Source: Chloroflexota bacterium
GTDB taxonomy: Bacteria; Chloroflexota; UBA11872; VXNJ01
DNA: 64,000 bases
Assembly: GCA_026707405.1 (NCBI GenBank)
Contig: JAPOWW010000004.1
Coordinates: 213,181-277,180, forward strand
Direction of reading: 5' to 3'
This document shows, piece after piece, positions 14,294 to 31,498 of this stretch; position 1 is the first letter of the stretch; each line of letters starts with the position of its first letter. The position numbers and the translations under genes are program-made. The notes below the pieces were generated by a model that ran no database searches, was not told where the DNA came from, and saw only the letters and a list, made by a program, of their open reading frames with translations.

Positions 14294-14791
14294 ATGGACT
14301 CTAGCGATTTCATACCCCTGCTTCTAACGGCGATAGCGGGCTTCTTTATCGCCATGATGTTCTCGAAAATCTGGGTGCCTTTCGCCAAGCCGCCTCCCGG
14401 TGTGGAAGTTCACTCGACCAAGCTCGGATTTCTTCAGAAAGTCATGGTCCATCGCTGGCATCTGCTGATCGTGCTCGGGCTCGCGAATCTGGGGAGCATC
14501 CCCGGCATCGAGGTCCCCGGCATACCTGCTAATGCGCTGGTGCTGATAATCCTCTTCGTGATTCTGATAGTCGTGCTGCCGACCCGATACAGGTTCACAG
14601 CTGAGGGCTTTGCGCTGGGACGGGGACGGATAATGCCCTGGAAGGACTTCAAGCGCTATCGCTTGGGGCCGGGACGCATCCAGTTCGAGACCAAGGGCGA
14701 GAATCCCAAGCGAGTGGATATTTTCGTAACTAACGTTCAGCAGCAGGCGCTGCGGCCCGTAATCAAGCGCTATTTCCGGGCTGGGCCTTAG
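14294..14791 (+). CDS. small membrane protein (two TM helices, basic PH-like C-terminal tail), unknown function
   Basis: Two clear hydrophobic helices and a Lys/Arg-rich C-terminus. Balanced coding composition, unlike the Arg-rich antisense ORF 14324..15286. Stop overlaps the rarA stop on the opposite strand. Confidence 0.5.
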   Translation: MDSSDFIPLLLTAIAGFFIAMMFSKIWVPFAKPPPGVEVHSTKLGFLQKVMVHRWHLLIVLGLANLGSIPGIEVPGIPANALVLIILFVILIVVLPTRYRFTAEGFALGRGRIMPWKDFKRYRLGPGRIQFETKGENPKRVDIFVTNVQQQALRPVIKRYFRAGP

Positions 14792-16122
14792 TCCGAATCG
14801 GAGTCGGTTCCGCTTACGCTTCGTAGCCGCTTCGTGATCTCGACTTCGTATCCACTTGAAGACGGCGCGTAAAAGCGGACACCCTTCAGAGACTCGGGCG
14901 TGTAGTCCTGTTCGACGAAGTGACCGGGATAGTCGTGTGCGTATTTGTAGCCTTGCCCGTAGCCCAGCGCCCTGGCGCCTGAGAACGCCTCGTTTCGGAG
15001 ATGGAGCGGGACCGTCAGATCGGCGCCCGCATCTATAGCGGCGCGGGCGGCTTGCAAGGCTTTTCCAGCGGAGTTGCTCTTGGGCGCGGTCGCCAGATAG
15101 ATGGTCGCCTGGGCCAGCGCGTAAGTCGCCTCCGGCAGACCCAGCCGTTCGACTGCCTGATATGCGGCGAGCGCCACCGATATGGCCCGCGGATCGGCGT
15201 TTCCTACGTCTTCGGAAGCCAGGATGAGTAGCCGTCGGGCTATGAATTCCGGCTGCTCGCCGGCGTGCAGCATCTTTGCCAGCCATAGCACGCTCGCGTC
15301 GGGGTCCGAACCGCGGAGGCTTTTGATGAAGGCCGAAATCGTGTCGTAGTGCTCGTCGGCCTTACGGTCGTAGCGGACGTGTCGAACCAAAACCGATCGT
15401 TCTACCGTGTCCAACTCGATGGTTTCGACACATTCGTCGATTGCAAGCTCCGCAGCCGCGTCGAGCCAGTTGAGGGCGATCCGCGCGTCGCCCCCGGAAC
15501 GGTCGGATATGAACCGTTTGGCGTCTCCGGATATCTCCAGCCCCAAGCCGCCAAGTCCCCGATCGGCGTCCGAAAGCGCCCGCTCCAGGATTCGCTCGAT
15601 CAGGTCCTGGGAGAGCGGGTTCAATCTGAGGACGCGAACCCGGCTGAGCAGCGGCGCAATGACCTCGAAATAGGGATTTTCGGTAGTGGCTCCCCAAAAC
15701 ACCACAGTCCCGTCTTCAACATAGGGAAGCAGCGCGTCCTGCTGGGACTTGCTGAAACGGTGCACTTCGTCCACGAACAGCAGGGTGTTCCGCTGATGCA
15801 GCTTGAACTCGTCTTGCGCCGACCTGGCCGCCGCCTTGATGTCCGCCACCCCGGCGGTCACGGCGCTGAGGGCTATGAAACGGCTCTCGGTAGCCGCCGC
15901 GGCCAGCGTCGCCAGGGTTGTCTTGCCGCTGCCCGGCGGTCCCCACAAGAGCGCCGACCATAGACGGTCGCGTTCGAGAGAGACCCAGAGCGGTCGACCG
16001 GGGTCCAGTAAGTGTTCTTGTCCCGCGAATTCGTCGAGCGATTCGGGACGCATCCGCGCGGCGAGCGGCGTCGATTTGAGTCTTGCATCGGCCGACGCGT
16101 GATCGAACAGATCGGGATTCAA
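14788..16122 (-). CDS. rarA: replication-associated recombination protein A (MgsA/RarA AAA+ ATPase)
   Basis: Walker A GPPGSGKTT, Walker B LLFVDEVHRF, MgsA helical lid and C-terminal domain. 444 aa. Confidence 0.9.
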   Translation of the reverse strand: MNPDLFDHASADARLKSTPLAARMRPESLDEFAGQEHLLDPGRPLWVSLERDRLWSALLWGPPGSGKTTLATLAAAATESRFIALSAVTAGVADIKAAARSAQDEFKLHQRNTLLFVDEVHRFSKSQQDALLPYVEDGTVVFWGATTENPYFEVIAPLLSRVRVLRLNPLSQDLIERILERALSDADRGLGGLGLEISGDAKRFISDRSGGDARIALNWLDAAAELAIDECVETIELDTVERSVLVRHVRYDRKADEHYDTISAFIKSLRGSDPDASVLWLAKMLHAGEQPEFIARRLLILASEDVGNADPRAISVALAAYQAVERLGLPEATYALAQATIYLATAPKSNSAGKALQAARAAIDAGADLTVPLHLRNEAFSGARALGYGQGYKYAHDYPGHFVEQDYTPESLKGVRFYAPSSSGYEVEITKRLRSVSGTDSDSD

Positions 16123-17717
16123 AGGAGCGCCCGCAAGAACTCCCTGATCCGGTCTCCGTTGCCGCGCGCGCCCTCGACCAATTCGTCATCGACCGGACCG
16201 CGCCTGTACCTTGCGTGGACGAACGCCTGTGTCAGCTCGGTGACGTCGGAGGCGTTCGACTCGCAGGCTTCCAGGAGATTCCGCTGGTACTCGATGGCGG
16301 TCTGGTTCGGGCTTCGCGCTATACCTGATCGCTCCGCCTCGCGCAGCGTGTTCAGGTAGATTCGCAGAATGCGCTCGCGGTTTGACAGCGCTTCAGCCGC
16401 CAGACCTCCCGAGAAAACCGAGGCTTTGCGGATACCCATCGCGTTCATTCCCCAGGCGGCCGCCTGTTCGCCTACCAACCTCAAAGCTTCGCCCGAAAGC
16501 TGTAGCAGCGAGGCCAGTCCGAGCAGGATGGACTTGAGGACTGCACCCAGCCCGGTCAGCACGATACTGAGCAGCTTGCCGATCTTCCATTGAGGGCGGG
16601 CGCTTGTGACACGTTTGTAGATGAGGAAGGCGGTGAAAGCCAGCACGGCCCACATAATCGCCGCCTGCAAAGACAGAAGAGCTGAGCCGTCGCTACCGGC
16701 GACCTCTGATACTGGTTGCGCGGCGGGGGCTTCAGGCACCGAGGAACCGCTGAATTGCAGCAGTGAAATCAGCTTGCCGAGCAGCGCGATCACCGCCACA
16801 AACGGAAGCATCAGGATCTGCCAGGCGACGAATACGACTTTGACCAGACCCGCCCAGAAGCCTTGGGCGTTCGGTATTTGGAAGCCGGGAATGAAAAGCG
16901 CGATCAGCAGCGCGAATCCGAGAACGAACAGGCTTGAACGGACCCAGTTTTCGGTGATCCCGGAAGCCTGCCGGGCGAGCTGCATCGACCAGGTGGAGGT
17001 CTGCCGGACGAGGTTTGCGTAGCTGTGCAGCACCAGCAACCCTATGAAATAGAACACGAGGATGGTCAGCGGAGCGGCCGGCGATACCACGGGCAAGTCG
17101 CCGCGCATTATCCCGCCGGCGGTCACCGCGGTAGTTGCTGTAAGGATCCCCCCTCCCGCGAATCCAACGGCCGTAATCTTGCCGACCGCGGCCTTTCGGT
17201 CGATCCAGCGCGCGCTGCTGGTCATCCAGCCGTAGTACTCAGGCGAGTTCACCGACGGAGGTATCTCGCTCTGCTGAGGATGGAGCTGCTCGATGTTGCG
17301 GGCCAGGAATGCGGCCGCCTGCCAGATAACGGCCAGGATCACGATCATGAGTATTGTCGACGTGTCCATGATTGCGAAGAACGATCCGATGAACCAGCCG
17401 TCTCGCTCGAAGTCGACGCCGGAGCCGCCCTGAACGATCCCAAGTCCGCGCAGGACCAAGAGCGAAGGAACGGCGAAAACGAGCCAGTCTTTCCATCCCG
17501 GTTTGTCGCCGCGCGCGCCCTGTCCCCGCATGAAGATGAAGAGACTTACGAGGAAGTTGCTCAACATCAGAGCGAAGGCCAGCCACGATTGCTGTGACGA
17601 GACACCGATTGCCATGAAGCCGAAGCCTAGGCCCAGCGCCAGCGTGCCAAAGCAAACCGACGCCAGCGACGCCAGGATCAGCCTGCTATATGGCCGCTCG
17701 ACCGTCTCGCCAGACAT
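16119..17717 (-). CDS. polytopic membrane protein with C-terminal DUF4129-like domain (MoxR/DUF58-associated)
   Basis: About 12 predicted TM segments. C-terminal soluble tail (...IEYQRNLLEAC...LTQAFVHARYRRGPVDDELVEGARG...) resembles DUF4129, the protein usually encoded after MoxR+DUF58. Overlaps rarA by 4 nt and DUF58 by 32 nt. Confidence 0.55.
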   Translation of the reverse strand: MSGETVERPYSRLILASLASVCFGTLALGLGFGFMAIGVSSQQSWLAFALMLSNFLVSLFIFMRGQGARGDKPGWKDWLVFAVPSLLVLRGLGIVQGGSGVDFERDGWFIGSFFAIMDTSTILMIVILAVIWQAAAFLARNIEQLHPQQSEIPPSVNSPEYYGWMTSSARWIDRKAAVGKITAVGFAGGGILTATTAVTAGGIMRGDLPVVSPAAPLTILVFYFIGLLVLHSYANLVRQTSTWSMQLARQASGITENWVRSSLFVLGFALLIALFIPGFQIPNAQGFWAGLVKVVFVAWQILMLPFVAVIALLGKLISLLQFSGSSVPEAPAAQPVSEVAGSDGSALLSLQAAIMWAVLAFTAFLIYKRVTSARPQWKIGKLLSIVLTGLGAVLKSILLGLASLLQLSGEALRLVGEQAAAWGMNAMGIRKASVFSGGLAAEALSNRERILRIYLNTLREAERSGIARSPNQTAIEYQRNLLEACESNASDVTELTQAFVHARYRRGPVDDELVEGARGNGDRIREFLRALL

Positions 17718-18924
17718 TCATTCCCTCCCGTCCCGCGACCGCGTGCGCTTCTATGCCCGCCGCGGCGGCGAGCGCCTTAGATTTCGAAGCGCCGAGCGCG
17801 TCGGTGAAGACCGCCGTGACATTGTGCCCCGCTTTCTTTCTGTCGAGAAGCGACCGTATTAGCTCGGCGTTACCGTTGCCGGTCACCACTATTAGCGTCG
17901 AGCCCCACGAGAGCCTGAGCGAGCCGGCGCGTAGCTCGTCTCCTATGGCTTCGCCTTCGAGCAAGCCGACTCTGGCCAGCAGGGCCAGAATCTCCATGAG
18001 ATGCTTGCGGCCCTTACCCACCGGCACCCGCGGCCGCCGTGAACCGCGGATCCTGCGCGCGCGCTCAGCCGGTATCGCCCGGCCGCCCACCATCACCCTG
18101 TCGAGACCATTGACGATCACGCCGACGGACTGCCTGTCTGATATCAAGGCGGAAGCGAGCGACGCGGCCACGACTATGCCGAGTTCGCTGGAGAAGCTGA
18201 CCCACTCCCTGGAATAGCCGCTAGGGTTAAGGTCGACGAAGATCGTCACTTCGTGACTTACCGCCGGTTCAAGCTGCCTAACGTGAATGATCCCCGTTCG
18301 GGCCGAGACCTTCCAGTTGATCATCCTCGGGCTGTCCGAAGGCTTGTATTCCCGGCAGCCAATCACTCTGGACGGATCCTCGTAGAGAATCTTCGGCGTC
18401 TTAATCGTGCCAAACGGCGTGGTCGAAGGCAGCCCCAGTTTGTCGAGCGGCACGATTTCCGGATAGACGATCACGTTTACGGGCCGGTCGAGACCGACCT
18501 GACGCTGCGCGAAGCCGAAAACGTCTCCGTACCGGGCCTCGAGCGGCCCGACGGGGTGGTAGCCCCGTCGGTTGCCGGACAGTTCATAGTCAATATCCAC
18601 ACTCGAACGCGGCTTGATGGCGATCACCCGGCGCATCACTTCGTAAGTCGCGAGCTCGTGCGGGAGCGTTTCGCGAACGTTGAGCCAGGGAATGGGCAAG
18701 AAGCTCCTGTTTTGCAGCGAAATCGTGACCGGGATCTTCTCCCCCAGAAATGCCCTGCCAGGCAGCTTCCTGCTGAGGCGGAGTCCGCGGCCGATGCTCC
18801 AGATCCAGAGCTTGCTCGCGGCGAAGATTCCAACGATTACGTAAACGAGTACGAAGAAGATGCCGAAGCCTGTTATGAGTCCCGCGGCGAGTAGCAGAGC
18901 CGCCGACACGAGGATGCCGGCCAC
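17686..18924 (-). CDS. DUF58 domain protein (vWA-like, MoxR-associated)
   Basis: Two N-terminal TM helices followed by a DUF58/vWA-like region (VTIFVDLNPSGYS...). Located 3 nt downstream of the MoxR ATPase gene. Confidence 0.7.
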   Translation of the reverse strand: MAGILVSAALLLAAGLITGFGIFFVLVYVIVGIFAASKLWIWSIGRGLRLSRKLPGRAFLGEKIPVTISLQNRSFLPIPWLNVRETLPHELATYEVMRRVIAIKPRSSVDIDYELSGNRRGYHPVGPLEARYGDVFGFAQRQVGLDRPVNVIVYPEIVPLDKLGLPSTTPFGTIKTPKILYEDPSRVIGCREYKPSDSPRMINWKVSARTGIIHVRQLEPAVSHEVTIFVDLNPSGYSREWVSFSSELGIVVAASLASALISDRQSVGVIVNGLDRVMVGGRAIPAERARRIRGSRRPRVPVGKGRKHLMEILALLARVGLLEGEAIGDELRAGSLRLSWGSTLIVVTGNGNAELIRSLLDRKKAGHNVTAVFTDALGASKSKALAAAAGIEAHAVAGREGMNVWRDGRAAI

Positions 18925-18927
18925 GGG

Positions 18928-19938
18928 CTATGACGCCAGTACTACTTCGGTGTCGGCGAGCACGGCGCCGGTTATGTCCTCGGCGGAGAATCCCCTGAGC
19001 GCGCTCTCCGGATCGACGAGGATGCGGTGCGTCAAAACGTCTGCGGCGACTTCCTTTACGTCGTCGGGCAGAACGTAGTCCCGCCCGCGAATTGCCGCAA
19101 GAGCCTGCGACGCCGCGAACAGCGCGAGCGACCCCCTGGTACTTGATCCGAGAGCCACGTTGGGATGATTCCGCGTCGACCGCGTTAGCGCCAGGATGTA
19201 GTCGGCAACCGTGTCGTCTACGTGAACCTGCCCGACGTCATTCTGCAATTCAGCCAGCAGACTCGTGTCCGTTACGGCGCCAATCGAATGGACCGGATGC
19301 CCGGAGACTTGATCGTAGAGAATGCGCTTCTCCTCATCGGTCGTGGGGTAACCGAGACTCAGCTTCATGAAAAACCGGTCTAACTGCGCTTCCGGAAGCG
19401 GGAAGGTGCCTTCGTATTCGACGGGGTTTTGCGTGGCCACCACGAGGAAAGGCTTGGGGAGTGCGTAGGTGACGCCGTCAGCCGATACCTGATTTTCCCC
19501 CATGCACTCGAGCATCGCCGACTGCGTTCTGGGTGTGGCGCGGTTGATTTCGTCGGCCAGCAAGACGTTGGCGAATACGGGACCTTCCTTGAATTCGAAC
19601 TCGGACGACTTGCTGTTGAAAACAGAGACTCCGGTTACGTCGTTGGGCAACAGGTCGGGAGTGAACTGAATGCGTTTGAACGTGCCGCCCAGCGAAATTG
19701 CGAGCGCCCGCGCGAGCATGGTCTTGCCTGTGCCGGGCAAGTCCTCCAGGAGCACGTGGCCCCGGCATATAAGGGCGACGATGATCTTCTCGATCTCCGC
19801 CTGCTTGCCGACTATTACTCTGCCGATGTTTTCGCTGACTTTTTTGGAAAAGTCTACGTAGGCGGACTGATCCAGGCGCTGCCCCCAAATCCGGTCGATG
19901 CGATTACCGGTCCGGTCGCTCCCCAGCGTCACTTGCAC
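18928..19938 (-). CDS. MoxR-family AAA+ ATPase
   Basis: VIVGKQAEIEKIIVALICRGHVLLEDLPGTGKTMLARA (Walker A), [19 protein letters not shown] (Walker B / sensor), AAA lid. GTG start. Confidence 0.9.
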   Translation of the reverse strand: MQVTLGSDRTGNRIDRIWGQRLDQSAYVDFSKKVSENIGRVIVGKQAEIEKIIVALICRGHVLLEDLPGTGKTMLARALAISLGGTFKRIQFTPDLLPNDVTGVSVFNSKSSEFEFKEGPVFANVLLADEINRATPRTQSAMLECMGENQVSADGVTYALPKPFLVVATQNPVEYEGTFPLPEAQLDRFFMKLSLGYPTTDEEKRILYDQVSGHPVHSIGAVTDTSLLAELQNDVGQVHVDDTVADYILALTRSTRNHPNVALGSSTRGSLALFAASQALAAIRGRDYVLPDDVKEVAADVLTHRILVDPESALRGFSAEDITGAVLADTEVVLAS

Positions 19939-22022: not shown

Positions 22023-22940
22023 ATGACAAGGTCCGTCGTGGACCGTTTTGATGAGTTCGAACTGGCGGGCGCGCCAGTCAGCCTGGATGCGGACATCGTC
22101 CGACGGACGGTTGCCGCCGCACTGGCCGAAGACATCGGCGACGGCGACATTACCTCGGAAACGGCAGTGCCGGAAGACATTCGCGTAAAGGCTCTCGCGA
22201 TCTCCCGCGAACCGGGCGTGCTGGCGGGAATCGAAGTCTTTGAAGCCGTGTTTCGCCAGGTTTCCTGTGAAGTGCAGGTCGACCGAATCCTTGCCGACGG
22301 GCAGTCGTTCGATGCACGGGAGACGCTGGCGGTCGTGACCGGAATGGCCAGGCCGATACTGACGGCGGAGCGGATAGCGCTGAATTTCCTTCAGCGCATG
22401 TGCGGAATAGCTACTCAGACGGCCAGGTACGTCGAAGCGGTCAAGGGTACCGGCACGACCATCCTCGATACCAGGAAAACCGTGCCCGGGCTTCGGATTT
22501 TCGACAAGTATTCGGTGCGCGCCGGCGGGGGCGCAAACCACCGCATGGGGCTTTTCGACGCCGCGCTGATCAAGGACAACCACATTGCCGCGGCAGGATC
22601 GCTTAATGAGGCTGTTTCGCGCGTTCGACATTCGGCAGGCGAGCGTGCCAGGTTCATTGAAGTAGAGTGCGATACTCTGAATCAGGTCGCGGAATGTCTT
22701 GAGATTGGCGTGGGCTTGATATTGCTCGACAATATGAACGTCGACCAAATGGCGCGCGCGGTGACGCTTGCCGCCGGAAGGGCTAAGCTCGAAGTGTCCG
22801 GGAATGTTGGCCTTCATAACGTGAGGGAGATTGCGGAAACCGGCGTCGATTACATTTCGGTGGGATCGCTGACGCACTCAGTAACGGCGCTCGACATAGG
22901 CTTGGATATTCGCCAGTCCGACCGGCCGGCCAATGAGTGA
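22023..22940 (+). CDS. nadC: nicotinate-nucleotide pyrophosphorylase [carboxylating] (quinolinate phosphoribosyltransferase)
   Basis: N-terminal and TIM-barrel domains with conserved blocks ILDTRKTVPGLR, GGGANHRMGLFDAALIKDNH, LLDNM, EVSGNV. Confidence 0.9.
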   Translation: MTRSVVDRFDEFELAGAPVSLDADIVRRTVAAALAEDIGDGDITSETAVPEDIRVKALAISREPGVLAGIEVFEAVFRQVSCEVQVDRILADGQSFDARETLAVVTGMARPILTAERIALNFLQRMCGIATQTARYVEAVKGTGTTILDTRKTVPGLRIFDKYSVRAGGGANHRMGLFDAALIKDNHIAAAGSLNEAVSRVRHSAGERARFIEVECDTLNQVAECLEIGVGLILLDNMNVDQMARAVTLAAGRAKLEVSGNVGLHNVREIAETGVDYISVGSLTHSVTALDIGLDIRQSDRPANE

Positions 22941-23262
22941 CCTGGATTTCACGCGGCAATACAGAACGCCTCACTCCGAGGGGTACCTGCTCAGCTTGCG
23001 CGGCGACGAATTGGGCAGGGTCGACTTGCATTACGGCTTCGAGTCGATATTCGCCACGCTGGTGCTTGTAAGAGAGGTTCGCGAGTCTCAGATACTTAAT
23101 CTCATCGAGGAGATCGACGAGCGCATCGCGCTTTCCGCCGAGTCTACGCGAGACGACTTTTGCGTGACGGTCTATCAGGGCAGGGAAATCGGGTTCTACA
23201 CCGACGACTATTTGGCGGAACACCGGCGGCGAGAACGCGGCGAAGCCAACGGTCAGGAGTAA
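22933..23262 (+). CDS. hypothetical acidic protein (109 aa)
   Basis: ORF with balanced composition, overlapping the nadC stop by 8 nt. No recognisable motif. Confidence 0.3.
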   Translation: MSDLDFTRQYRTPHSEGYLLSLRGDELGRVDLHYGFESIFATLVLVREVRESQILNLIEEIDERIALSAESTRDDFCVTVYQGREIGFYTDDYLAEHRRRERGEANGQE

Positions 23263-23271
23263 GCCTAAAGC

Positions 23272-23805
23272 CTAGGCCTTGATGCCCTGCTTGCTCTCCA
23301 TCTCAAGCAGCCTTCGCTTCAGATCAATACCGGCGGCGTAGCCTCCAACCTCCCCATTTGCCGATACGACTCGATGGCACGGAACGAATACGAGTGCGGG
23401 GTTGGAGCCGAGCGCCGCGCCCGCCGCGCGGGCGTATTTTCGTGCCGGATATCCAGCCGACTGCGCCACCCAACCGTAGGTCCGCGTCTCGCCCTTGGGA
23501 ATGAGTTGACAGGCCCGCCAGATTTTCCTTTGGAAGTCCGTTCCCTCCAGATCGAGGCCAGGCGTACTTCCGGCCGCGCCGGCAAGCCGTTCCCGCAATA
23601 GCTCGAGCCACGGTCGGGCGGGTTGGGCATCGATTGCCCGCCGTCCCGGCAGGCTCGCCTGTAGCGCTGCCGCTGCTTCGGCCGCGCTCGACTGCCCGAT
23701 TGTGGAGGCGATCAAACGTCCCGAACGCGCGGCTACGCCGCACCATCCCCAGCCATCGACTTTGTCTACGGCGATATGGTCCAAGTCCGTGATCGATTCG
23801 ACCAC
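23272..23805 (-). CDS. ogt: methylated-DNA--protein-cysteine methyltransferase
   Basis: Active-site PCHRVV plus the helix-turn-helix DNA-binding block (TYGWVAQSAGYPARKYARAAGAALGSNPALVFVPCHRVV). GTG start 2 nt after the upstream MoxR stop. Confidence 0.85.
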   Translation of the reverse strand: MVESITDLDHIAVDKVDGWGWCGVAARSGRLIASTIGQSSAAEAAAALQASLPGRRAIDAQPARPWLELLRERLAGAAGSTPGLDLEGTDFQRKIWRACQLIPKGETRTYGWVAQSAGYPARKYARAAGAALGSNPALVFVPCHRVVSANGEVGGYAAGIDLKRRLLEMESKQGIKA

Positions 23806-23807
23806 GA

Positions 23808-24755
23808 TCAGGCGGCCGTTGCCCCGGGAACCGCAATCGTGTCCAGGATTTCCTGGACCACGTCGCGCGTATCGACATTGCGTATTCGGGCCGCCGGACT
23901 AACTATCAGTCGATGCGCCAGCGTTGGCACGCACAGATGCTTTACGTCGTCTGGAATTACGTAGTCGCGTCCCCGGAAGCTGGCCAGGACTTGAGCGCCT
24001 CTGAACAGGGCCAGGCTGCCCCGGGTACTCGCTCCGAGATATATCTCCCGATGGTCTCGCGTGGCGCGCACGAGGTCCACGATGTATTCCCGCAGGACCG
24101 CGTCGACGTATATGTCTTTGATCTCTTCCTGTATTTGCAGCAGGTCCTCAATCCCGATCACCTGCTCCAACTCTTCGATCGGCTGCGTATGTAAGTGAGC
24201 CTCTATGACCTCAAGCTCGTCGGCGCGGCTCGTGTATCCCATGCTGATGCGCATAAAGAAGCGGTCAAGCTGCGACTCCGGCAGCGGGTAGGTCCCCTCA
24301 TATTCGATGGGGTTCTGAGTTGCCATAACCAGGAAGGGTTCCGGCAAGTTGTAAGTCACTCCGTCGACCGTGACCTGCTGCTCCTCCATCGCTTCGAGAA
24401 GCGAGGACTGGGTCTTGGGCGTGGCCCGATTGATCTCGTCCGCCAGAACGATCTGGGCCATTATCGGCCCCGGTCGAAACTCAAATTCAAGCGTTTTCTG
24501 GTTGAAGATCGAAACTCCGGAAACATCGCTAGGCAGGATGTCAGGCGTGAACTGGACGCGCTTGAAGGTGCACCCTATGGATTGGGATATAGCTTTTGCC
24601 AGGGTGGTCTTGCCGACGCCCGGAACGTCCTCGATAAGGACGTGTCCTCGAGCGACGAGGGCGACCAGTACCAGTTCTACCACGTCGGGCTTTCCCAGAA
24701 TGACTTTCTCTACGTTTTCACTGACTCTTCGTGCGATGTTGCGAATGTCTTGCAT
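23808..24755 (-). CDS. MoxR-family AAA+ ATPase (second paralog)
   Basis: [57 protein letters not shown]. About 60-65% identical to the MoxR at 18928-19938 over the ATPase core. ATG at 24755 ([11 protein letters not shown]...) preferred over the ORF-track start at 24794. Confidence 0.9.
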
Positions 24756-24895
24756 AACTTCCCCCGGACATCGAAATGGAGAACGATAGGTCAACTAGCT
24801 CGTTTGGCTGCGCGCATTCTAACTGTTTCTAAGGCGACGTTCGCCAATCGCCTTTGACAGCGTCCGTCTGGAGGTCTAGTCTCGAATCCCGCAGC

Positions 24896-24968
24896 GCGGG
24901 TATGGTTCAATGGCAGAACGCAACCTTCCCAAGGTTGAAATGCGGGTTCGATTCCCGCTACCCGCTCC
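24896..24968 (+). tRNA. tRNA-Gly (anticodon CCC)
   Basis: Cloverleaf by eye: acceptor GCGGGTA/TACCCGC, D-stem GTTC/GAAC, anticodon stem CAACC/GGTTG with loop TTCCCAA, T-arm GCGGG-TTCGATT-CCCGC, discriminator T then CC. Confidence 0.85.
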
Positions 24969-24993: not shown

Positions 24994-27390
24994 CTATTCG
25001 GCTCTCTTCGGCAATACGAACTGCCTGAGCGATTCGGTTCCCAGCACGAGCAATCTGCCGTCCAGCTCGCTTATCCAAAGCGCCCGAATGTCGGAAAAGA
25101 AGTTGTCGGCGCCGCGATAGATGAACTGGCGCACGAACCGCCCTTCATTGCCGTCGCGCTTGTCGATTTCGACGATGCGGTTGTTGCCGTCGTCGACCAC
25201 GTAAAGGCTCTCCGCGGTGGTATCCGTGTACACGCGGGTGGCTTTGGTGATCGGGCGGTCCAGCCCGCTGATCTGAAACCGCAATTTCTTGCCGCCCCGG
25301 TACCGCTCGATCGTGTTGTCGGACAGGAGCACGAAAATGTCGCCGTCTATAGCCATGTCTATGGCGGTGCTGATGTCGACGTCCTCCGACGGATCGAAGT
25401 AGTCGATAGGGTCGACTTCGTACCCATTGGCGGTCGGCTGGTATTTGTGAATTCGATTGGCGGCGGGGTCCAGGATGTACATGTTGTTGTTGAAGTTGTC
25501 GACCGCGACCGGGAGTTTCCATTGTTCGGTTCCGCTGACCCTTAACAGCTGCGGGGAGCGATCGGGGACGATGCTGTACACGTTGAATTCGCTGTCAATC
25601 ACCAGCAGACTCAACTCGCGCGCGACCATGCCGATGATGTTCGTGACGGCGGCTTGACCGACCTGCTCTCCTTCACGGAGCACGACAGAGCCGCGTTTAG
25701 CCGCGCGATATTCGATCAGCCTCTTATCGACGGCGTCGATTACGTACTGGACGTCCTGTCTAACTTCGAGCTGGGGAACAATCCTTGCTATACCGACCCC
25801 AGTGTCGTTGAACTCATCGATCGTGGCGCTCGTAACGAGGCGATAGACCTGGTTAAGACGGTCTTGCTCGGCCTGTATCTGTGCGAGAAGACGGTTAACT
25901 TCACCTTCGTTGTAGCCCGCGTCGATCGCCTGGTTGGCCGCGTCGATCGCATCCTGCAACCCTGCCAGAGCGGGGACTCTTTCTCTTTCTCGCACTGCCG
26001 CGTCGAAATAGCGTTTCGCCTCGGCGAATGAGTTTGCGGCGCTCCCCAGCGGCGCGGTTTGCTCAGGTTCGGCCCTCGTTTCGACCTGTCTTTCTGACTG
26101 CGGCGTTTGATTCGTTGCGACGCTGGGCGATTCGTCTCTTCGAATCGCCAGTATCAGTAGTACGGCGACGAGGGCTACTACCGAAAAGAGCAGGAGTATC
26201 GAGCCCGTCCCAAAGCGTGACCGCGAGCGGCCTCCGGAGGCCAGTGAATCACGACCGCCGAACAGCGACATGAAGACTCCTCGAACTCCGCCCCTTCCGG
26301 GATCGTCCACATCGGGCCACGGTTTGAGCACGGTATCTCGTTTCGATTCCATTACCTGTCTGTTCAGTTCGTCCAACTCTTCAGGCCCGCCGGCTATCGC
26401 CTGCCGCCGCCGCTCGTAGTCGGTCATGGGCGGACTATCGAATCCCGTCTGTCTGGCATATGGGGATGATTCGGAGGTGTCTTGCGGTCGTGACGCGAAG
26501 ACTCTGACGATGCCTTTCAAGGCCATCACCGGCAGCACAAGGACTAGCAGCAACATGCCTATTACGAATTCGCCGATCTTCGCTGCGGCGCCTTTGGAAG
26601 GACGCCCCGCCGCCGTTGCGCCCGCCTGGGCGGTGCGCCAGTCAGGTTCCAGACCGGCTGCGCGGCCTTCCGGCGCGACCGGCGGCCTGGGCCGCGTAGT
26701 GGTTTGCCGCGGCGGGCGTGCGGCTGGGCGATCGAACGCCTCCGGCACTGCAGCGGATTCCGGCTTCAGGATGAGCACGTCGCAATCGACGGCGCCGCGT
26801 TGCGCGGCCAACGCGGCTATCTGGTACGCGGAGTCTTCGGGCGGGTAGCGGACCAGAAGCCCGCGGATTTCCCTTTCGTGCAGAACACCGGCCACAACCG
26901 AGGAAGTCAGGACGATCAAGTCGCTTTCCGTCAGGTCCGCCCGGAGGATCTCTATTTCCTTGTCAAACGGCAGGCCGTCGTCAGGGGTCGTAATGTCGGT
27001 TCCCGGTTCGGGGCGCGCGTTAAGCCGGTTATCCCGAAAAATGAAGAGCTGCGTCGGTGGAAGCTGGGCTATGAACAAATCCTTGCCGCGTACCACAACG
27101 CCAGTGCTTCCCAGATCGAGCCGCTCTTCGTTGGGACGGGCCGCCGCTGCCGCCGCGCTCGAGCCAGCCCTCATGCATCGCATCAGACTGGATATCGCGC
27201 TACTGGTGTCGCCGGAGTAGTAGGCGCGGACGGCGGCGTCGGCGAAATGCGAGCACAGCCGCTCGTTTCCGCCCTCCAGCACAAGATATAGGTGGCCGGC
27301 CGATCCGCCGACCGGCGGGTCGGCGATTCTTATTCTCGAGCTTGCCAGTCCGGGCTGGCCGTGAAGAAAGCTAGCCTGTGCGAATTCCAA
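24994..27390 (-). CDS. membrane protein: N-terminal cytoplasmic PP2C-like (probably catalytically degenerate) domain, two TM helices, C-terminal NHL-repeat beta-propeller
   Basis: N-terminal region parallels PP2C blocks (LVLEGGNE vs ADGMGG; GSTGVVVRGKDLFIAQLPPTQLFIFRDNRL vs GTTAV...GDSRAYLLRDGEL; LIVLTSSVV vs LLCSDGL) with metal-ligand positions substituted. TM helices FVIGMLLLVLVLPVMAL and ILLLFSVVALVAVLLILAI. C-terminal repeats YVVDDGNNRIVEIDK and MYILDPAANRIHKY are NHL-like. Confidence 0.5.
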   Translation of the reverse strand: MEFAQASFLHGQPGLASSRIRIADPPVGGSAGHLYLVLEGGNERLCSHFADAAVRAYYSGDTSSAISSLMRCMRAGSSAAAAAARPNEERLDLGSTGVVVRGKDLFIAQLPPTQLFIFRDNRLNARPEPGTDITTPDDGLPFDKEIEILRADLTESDLIVLTSSVVAGVLHEREIRGLLVRYPPEDSAYQIAALAAQRGAVDCDVLILKPESAAVPEAFDRPAARPPRQTTTRPRPPVAPEGRAAGLEPDWRTAQAGATAAGRPSKGAAAKIGEFVIGMLLLVLVLPVMALKGIVRVFASRPQDTSESSPYARQTGFDSPPMTDYERRRQAIAGGPEELDELNRQVMESKRDTVLKPWPDVDDPGRGGVRGVFMSLFGGRDSLASGGRSRSRFGTGSILLLFSVVALVAVLLILAIRRDESPSVATNQTPQSERQVETRAEPEQTAPLGSAANSFAEAKRYFDAAVRERERVPALAGLQDAIDAANQAIDAGYNEGEVNRLLAQIQAEQDRLNQVYRLVTSATIDEFNDTGVGIARIVPQLEVRQDVQYVIDAVDKRLIEYRAAKRGSVVLREGEQVGQAAVTNIIGMVARELSLLVIDSEFNVYSIVPDRSPQLLRVSGTEQWKLPVAVDNFNNNMYILDPAANRIHKYQPTANGYEVDPIDYFDPSEDVDISTAIDMAIDGDIFVLLSDNTIERYRGGKKLRFQISGLDRPITKATRVYTDTTAESLYVVDDGNNRIVEIDKRDGNEGRFVRQFIYRGADNFFSDIRALWISELDGRLLVLGTESLRQFVLPKRAE

Positions 27391-30867: not shown

Positions 30868-31498
30868 GAAATGAGAAATCCTGTTCACGATACGACCGTG
30901 AGCGGTGATAATAGGGAGACGCTCGACGCCGCTCGGTATGTCACGCGGGTTGCGTTCCAACATTTCTAATCGGGGAGCTTGGCTGGTGGCGGTATCGGCC
31001 GCATAGGCTGTTAACGTCGGCCGCGGGCACCCACCTGGTAGATCCAGGGGACGAATTTCAGTGGCAGCCGGCGGCCGTGGAGCGTCGCCTCGCTATGCTG
31101 AACAGCGTCTGTCTCTCAGCTTCGCGTGGAGACCGTTTCGGAGCGCACCGGGCGCCGGTGCGCTCAACACTTTGATGGGCTCTATGGCTTCGTCCGCGAC
31201 GCGGCGGAAAACCGGACAGATCGGCTCGGCGTATTCATAACCAAACAGTCCTGGTCTGTTGTGGGGACTAACACGTGCCGTTACTTTGTCGTTGCCATTG
31301 GGCTGTCCGGCCCAATACTCAAACAAACGTTCGTAAGACGTAATCGGTGTGATAACGTTCGCAGCGCCGAGTTTCGCGTCGAGAGAAAGCCGGGTAATTC
31401 CTTTCGGCGTTCTCGCGGCGGGCTTCGGAATCAGCTCACCGGCTGCTGACAACCGGCTCGGCAGTCGCTGGCATTGCGCTTCGAGAAGAGATGCCCCA

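Follow-up and report, generated by a model that had tools for sequence, protein, structure and literature searches.

Introduction

MoxR ATPases of the MRP subfamily are typically, although not obligatorily, encoded next to a DUF58/vWA partner, and the canonical operons of this subfamily have the order moxR-DUF58-vWA or transglutaminase. One example is yeaC-yeaD-yebA of B. subtilis, another the aaa-atp/duf58/tgm core of the bifidobacterial PFNA cluster (PMC8430577). The VWA genes of Synechococcus sp. NKBG15041c are genomically distant from the gene for its MRP-subfamily protein SyMRP, for which ATP-dependent general chaperone activity and a role in stress tolerance were reported (PMC11432383). 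NorQ-NorD and RavA-ViaA belong to other MoxR subfamilies, in which a MoxR hexamer remodels its target via a VWA adaptor (PMC9976466, PMC13036017). Regarding the O6-alkylguanine-DNA alkyltransferases (Ogt/MGMT), which are consumed in repair, the disposal of the alkylated protein in bacteria, and in organisms beyond those studied, is yet to be established (PMC10779285).

Here we describe a gene pair from an uncultured Chloroflexota bacterium (GCA_026707405.1, contig JAPOWW010000004.1), in which a gene for an MRP-subfamily MoxR ATPase, moxR2, is followed directly by ogt. The window, i.e., the whole stretch of DNA that was analysed, comprises 64 kb; loci from other genomes are designated by the letter L and a number. 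The pairing is previously undescribed, no paper connecting MoxR with alkyltransferases having been found in a literature search, and it represents a variation on the MoxR operon theme. MoxR2 shares with the canonical MRP operons the AAA_3 and AAA_lid_2 ATPase with all of its motifs, but ogt stands in place of a cis DUF58, vWA or transglutaminase gene and is the only operon partner; the other MoxR gene of the window, moxR1, has the canonical DUF58 neighbour, and two further clades of MoxR loci (B and C) retain the full operon and add ogt to it. Like SyMRP, MoxR2 is an MRP-subfamily MoxR that lacks a nearby partner gene, although SyMRP is cyanobacterial, has no reported link to ogt and is compared with MoxR2 by subfamily, not by orthology. 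NorQ-NorD and RavA-ViaA fall into the same AAA+ clade as MoxR2 but have an obligatory VWA partner, for which there is no counterpart beside moxR2, and their clients are metalloenzymes or respiratory complexes rather than a DNA-repair protein. The Ogt of the window shares PF01035, the PCHR cysteine, the tyrosine, the arginine finger and the asparagine hinge with M. tuberculosis OGT (4BHB) and with E. coli Ogt and Ada-C; it differs in an N-domain that is not recognised by PF02870 and carries a WGWCG motif, and its gene lies in a MoxR operon instead of alone or in an ada-type operon.

Two assignments to conflict or defence systems were considered and rejected. The ternary MoxR-vWA-beta-propeller conflict system (PMC7159879) does not fit the locus, given that the bpMoxR profile (PF20030) yielded 42 bits versus 218 for AAA_3 and that a vWA gene is missing. 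The matches obtained with PADLOC were marginal, and none was significant.

Gene and protein features

The longest open reading frame of moxR2 (328 aa) extends on the minus strand from TTG 24794 to TGA 23810-23808. The likely start of the gene is ATG 24755, which yields a protein of 315 aa (23808..24755, minus strand); an SD-like GGGGGAAG (24765-24758) is located just 5' of this codon, and all gene callers and the homologs concur. TTG 24794 is probably not a start codon, because it is part of a TTGACC hexamer within an invariant intergenic block. This block (24775-24830) was identified in a comparison of three strains and includes TTGACC (24794-24789) and TAGAAT (24821-24816); the surrounding intergenic region (24756..24895, minus strand) holds the probable promoter and 5' UTR of moxR2. 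The promoter is placed here from the conserved block; a consensus sigma-70 scan of both strands returned no site, even upstream of moxR2. The scan is uninformative on an internal ogt promoter, as is the strain comparison, which showed no excess conservation in the 3' end of moxR2.

Based on its profile matches, MoxR2 is an MRP-type MoxR protein with an ATPase core (AAA_3, PF07726; 217.8 bits) followed by a lid domain (AAA_lid_2, PF17863; 83.1 bits), and its best solved relative is the MoxR structure 2R44 (260 bits). The translation contains an intact Walker A (GVGKT), Walker B (LADEINR), sensor 1 (ATQNP), arginine finger (LDRF) and sensor 2 (STRGS), and these motifs align with MoxR1 free of gaps. 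MoxR2 is predicted to be a functional member of the hexameric ATPase/chaperone class. The gene is the most strongly constrained of the neighbourhood: compared with L003 and L005, about 35 synonymous changes and no amino-acid change were observed (dN = 0 at dS 0.13-0.16), whereas dN/dS in the same strain comparison was about 0.1 for MoxR1, 0.13-0.2 for NadC and about 0.29 for Ogt.

The adjoining ogt gene (23272..23805, minus strand) starts with GTG and encodes an O6-alkylguanine-DNA alkyltransferase of 177 aa, with scores of 100.6 bits for PF01035 and 92.1 bits for TIGR00589 (cutoff 46.4). In an alignment with M. tuberculosis OGT (4BHB) the PCHR active site, the tyrosine, the arginine finger and the Asn-Pro of the asparagine hinge are all retained, and PCHR is invariant among the 14 MoxR-linked Ogt sequences. 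The protein is not one of the alkyltransferase-like (ATL) proteins, which have the acceptor cysteine replaced and lack transfer activity, because this cysteine is present in PCHR; it is predicted to be an ordinary, catalytically competent suicide alkyltransferase. The N-terminal ribonuclease-like domain (PF02870) was not detected in this Ogt by profile search, and a relative from clade C yielded a weak match to it; the length of the protein and a G-W motif agree with a divergent N-domain. The Ogt proteins of the MoxR2 clade (clade A, see below) carry a distinctive N-terminal motif, WGWCG(V/T)AA, which is absent from those of clades B and C.

The two genes are joined by a stop-start junction (23803..23810, minus strand) that reads TGA-tc-GTG, i.e., the GTG start of ogt at 23805 follows two bases after the TGA of moxR2, just as had been noticed in a previous reading of the letters alone (the sequence-only reading), and no SD-like purine run is found 5-12 nt before the GTG. 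Such closeness of stop and start, with a distal gene that lacks its own SD, is the mark of a translationally coupled pair, and the ribosomes that translate ogt are most likely those that have terminated on moxR2 and reinitiate (TGA-nn-GTG). A gap of 2 nt is ordinary in this region: within a stretch of 21 kb, 7-8 of the 13 co-directional neighbour pairs are separated by at most 4 nt or overlap. Some of these, e.g., aminotransferase-alkD and DUF4129-rarA, join genes for which a functional link is not obvious.

Genomic context

The canonical unit of the window, moxR1-DUF58-DUF4129 (16119..19938, minus strand, assigned by domain matches), starts with moxR1 at 18928-19938, downstream of which the DUF58 and DUF4129 genes are located; it is a possible source of a partner in trans for MoxR2. 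The distance between the two MoxR genes is 3.9 kb, in line with the 4 kb given by the sequence-only reading. The same reading had put their identity at 60-65%, which proved too high, as 52% was measured over 299 aa. Its remark that moxR2 lacks a vWA/DUF58 partner holds: the gene downstream is ogt, and the sole DUF58 match in the 64-kb window is the partner of MoxR1, with none beside moxR2. MoxR2 is 60-67% identical to MoxR proteins of other Chloroflexota, i.e., above the 52% to MoxR1, whose own nearest relatives are MoxR proteins linked to DUF58 and DUF4129 (60-63%). The two are therefore ancient paralogs, each being closer to the MoxR proteins of other organisms than to the other. The DUF4129 gene is overlapped at its end by 4 nt (16119-16122) by rarA/mgsA (14788-16122, minus strand), so the moxR1 unit also ends in a tightly joined gene of DNA metabolism.

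A tRNA-Gly(CCC) gene (24896..24968, plus strand) is present upstream of moxR2, as had been noted, but it lies on the opposite strand and does not belong to moxR2. In the relatives this tRNA gene always follows the 3' end of the gene for a protein of 798 aa and moves or inverts along with it, so it delimits the moxR2-ogt unit on the upstream side and is no part of it. The 798-aa gene (24994-27390, minus strand) encodes a conserved membrane protein whose C-terminus is rich in repeats and for which two membrane segments are predicted, and the tRNA-Gly(CCC) that comes after it in the relatives is convergent. The protein gave no Pfam match and no vWA match, and its N-terminus gave a weak match to PP2C-like phosphatases. 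As a hidden vWA partner of MoxR2 it was dismissed on these grounds, on account of the opposite-strand tRNA gene in between, and because in L086, L008 and L182 the gene is displaced or inverted while moxR2 and ogt stay paired.

On the other side of the pair lies a gene for a hypothetical protein of 109 aa (hyp109; 22933-23262, plus strand), for which no family was matched. It has an overlap of 8 nt with the nadC stop and is convergent with ogt, only 9 nt separating the two stop codons; it is strongly constrained (dN/dS about 0.04) and occurs in most but not all lineages of clade A. An AlkD-like gene of DNA-alkylation repair (PF08713; 21159-21914, plus strand), which shares an ATGA overlap with the stop of the preceding class-V aminotransferase gene, is located 1.4 kb from ogt, so that two alkylation-repair genes occur within 2.7 kb. 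It is also found in L086/L087 (65% identity), and in L088 and L182 its place is taken by nadB. Downstream of aspS, a 6S RNA (RF00013) was detected at 30918-31087 (plus strand) with 48.5 bits versus a gathering score of 46.4.

Conservation of the gene pair

Clade A, the clade of MoxR2, was delimited by neighbour-joining (bootstrap 77, with 100 for an inner node), and nine of its lineages were examined. The sequence-only reading had proposed a search for moxR-ogt pairs in other genomes; in all nine lineages ogt is located directly after moxR2, with a spacing of -4 to +177 nt, and in seven of the nine the genes overlap or are at most 4 nt apart. Within the window strains (the window and L001-L005; MoxR2 identity 100%) the junction is TGA, 2 nt and GTG. 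A GTGA overlap is found in L086/L087 (85%) and a TTGA overlap in L088 and L006, which together with L089 and a 782-kb JGI contig show 73% identity; the JGI contig has a 4-nt overlap according to the called coordinates. L008 (73%) and L182 (71%) have spacers of 177 and 130 nt, respectively. TGA, 4 nt and ATG make up the junction in L092 (69%) as well as in L172-L176 (67-69%). In total, more than 100 orthologs of MoxR2 were found at an identity of at least 67%.

The clade is a deep one, given that the identity of AspRS within it drops to 57%, the level seen between classes, while MoxR2 holds at 71%; the identity of Ogt drops to 36-52%. By its AspRS the organism is placed in the Chloroflexota and no further, as matches from several classes showed similar identities. 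Both flanks have changed. Directly upstream of moxR2 there is a 4-kb island insertion or an inversion, and downstream of ogt hyp109 is either present or absent; the pair is never split. In L086 (1000-4900) and L087 (68-4820) the insertion of about 4 kb lies between tRNA-Gly and moxR2 and contains small ORFs of unknown function and a gene for an SRAP (abasic-site crosslinking) protein, and in L087 also a transposase, so that it resembles an island integrated beside a tRNA gene. The wider block of aspS, infC, the 798-aa gene and nadC is syntenic in clade A as well, which makes conservation a weaker argument either way. As judged from these comparisons, the adjacency of moxR2 and ogt is real and ancient in a deep, uncultured lineage of the Chloroflexota.

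Related operons and other contexts

Two further clades, mostly labelled Dehalococcoidia, link MoxR with Ogt in another arrangement, in which ogt is appended as the fourth gene to moxR-DUF58-transglutaminase(+DUF4129). These are clade B (L062/L064/L068/L069) and clade C (L060/L066/L025/L102/L105), each with a bootstrap of 100. The four-gene operon is present in L025, L102, L105, L060, L062, L068 and L069, and L066 is rearranged; in five of the seven loci of clades B and C the start of ogt overlaps the transglutaminase stop (ATGA or GTGA). Because the protein is too short and evolves too fast for a phylogeny linking clades A, B and C, bit scores were used for the comparison of Ogt. According to these scores the proteins of B and C are mutually related, whereas those of A are related to neither, being no nearer to B and C than to unrelated Ogt. 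The deep nodes of the MoxR neighbour-joining tree have bootstrap values of 0-35. Together with the Ogt scores, this leaves either one ancient linkage, with the middle genes later deleted from clade A, or two separate recruitments of ogt.

Regarding MoxR loci in general, the canonical DUF58 neighbour is present at 65 of 76 informative genome loci. In two unbiased scans DUF58 was found directly downstream at most of the informative loci; 18 loci had neither DUF58 nor ogt, ogt was adjacent at three, and at seven it ended a full operon. The MoxR proteins closest to clade A from outside have either a DUF58 gene or neither a DUF58 neighbour nor ogt. Those without either are a clade of 322-aa proteins and the Chloroflexia loci L010, L012 and L097. 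The former (L007/L009/L090, e.g., L090 4612-5559) is 70% identical to MoxR2, and a convergent gene of the Cas6 family takes the place of DUF58 or ogt. In L012 (7168-11574) a Chloroflexaceae MoxR, 64% identical to MoxR2 and without a DUF58 neighbour, is followed by a gene with a photolyase FAD domain and, 3.8 kb further on, by an Fpg/Nei-like gene named from its PELPEVE N-terminus only. A DNA-repair theme around such orphan MoxR genes was considered and judged incidental, as the photolyase- and Fpg-like genes of L012 are missing from its relatives L010 and L097 and the SRAP gene of L086/L087 belongs to a transposase-bearing island beside a tRNA gene. Downstream of the MoxR gene at L120, L128 and L129, the transglutaminase and DUF58 genes are on the opposite strand and convergent, i.e., the canonical operon is present in an inverted version. 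Three other Chloroflexota ogt genes, picked from the homolog list, are all found in unrelated contexts, two with an overlap into a neighbour that is likewise unrelated (hicB in one case and a 60-aa ORF in the other).

Interpretation

The reading that we favour, and hold to be probable with considerable room for doubt, is that moxR2 and ogt form a conserved two-gene operon in which ogt rides on the expression of moxR2. A promoter in the 140-nt region between the tRNA gene and moxR2, for which the block at 24775-24830 is the candidate, would give rise to a single transcript covering both genes. MoxR2 would be translated from its own SD, and ribosomes that end at its TGA would restart at the GTG two bases on, ogt having no SD of its own. 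MoxR2 itself would act as a chaperone, either on its own or together with the product of another locus, for which the DUF58/DUF4129 pair at a distance of 4 kb is a possibility, and would have no direct relation to Ogt at the protein level. By drawing on the promoter and the translating ribosomes of a housekeeping gene with steady expression, ogt would secure a basal supply of a protein that repairs O6-alkylguanine stoichiometrically and is consumed in doing so. This reading agrees with the local frequency of equally tight pairs, with the unrelated contexts and overlaps of the other Chloroflexota ogt genes, and with the precedent of SyMRP, an MRP MoxR that is a general chaperone in vitro although no VWA gene lies near its own (PMC11432383). 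It is less at ease with a pair that has outlasted a divergence at which most gene order decays, and with ogt also closing the canonical moxR operons of clades B and C. Since clade-A Ogt is not specially related to that of B and C, the association may even have arisen twice, an outcome not expected from hitch-hiking alone.

These same observations speak for a functional module, in which MoxR2 would be a dedicated AAA+ remodeller that extracts or unfolds alkylated or DNA-crosslinked Ogt, or assists its folding or loading, as the sequence-only reading had suggested. The deep conservation of the pair despite rearranged flanks, the second and possibly independent association of ogt with full MoxR operons and the N-terminal motif specific to clade-A Ogt would all suit such a module, and it stays attractive because the fate of alkylated alkyltransferase in bacteria has yet to be established (PMC10779285). 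Still, neither a MoxR2-Ogt fusion nor co-variation was found, Ogt evolves fast while MoxR2 is nearly frozen, and the spacers of 130-177 nt in L182 and L008 indicate that tight coupling is not obligatory; moreover, for the nearest MoxR proteins outside clade A (the 322-aa clade, L010/L012 and the genome of L011), ogt lies at another site or is missing from the vicinity. A chaperone-client link between MoxR2 and Ogt is accordingly possible but rather unlikely, and the module as a whole is given about the same low standing. Somewhat less likely again, as an account of origin that is compatible with expression-riding, is that an ancestral moxR-DUF58-transglutaminase-ogt operon lost its two middle genes in clade A. 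The four-gene operon does exist in clades B and C, the deep MoxR nodes permit a sister relation of A to B/C, and P0034, a MoxR2-like protein of 71% identity, is labelled Dehalococcoidia by NCBI, as are those clades. MoxR2 is, however, nearer to DUF58-linked or orphan MoxR proteins without ogt (64-67%) than to those of B and C (56-63%), the nearest orphan clades lack ogt, and clade-A Ogt scores no higher against that of B and C than against unrelated Ogt. The idea of a gene-duplication remnant, also raised by the sequence-only reading, is rejected: a recent or decaying copy of moxR1 that came to lie beside ogt by chance is highly improbable. Nothing but the distance of 3.9 kb and the missing DUF58 partner speaks for it; against it stand the 52% identity, the affinity of MoxR1 to other DUF58-DUF4129-linked proteins, the numerous orthologs of MoxR2, its intact motifs and a constraint tighter than that on MoxR1.

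Implications

Few clients are known for the widespread MRP-type MoxR ATPases, and the moxR-ogt pair is a cheaply testable candidate for a client and its chaperone. At its boldest, and with a probability that we consider small, a MoxR AAA+ system could serve several Chloroflexota lineages as a machine for the disposal or remodelling of alkylated or DNA-trapped Ogt; it would be a bacterial counterpart of the ubiquitin-proteasome degradation of eukaryotes, with the MoxR of clade A freed from DUF58/vWA adaptors. If co-expression is all that ties the two genes together, the locus would be a clean case of a strongly constrained MRP MoxR without a cis partner, and of a repair protein, consumed stoichiometrically, whose basal level is maintained through the expression of a housekeeping gene.
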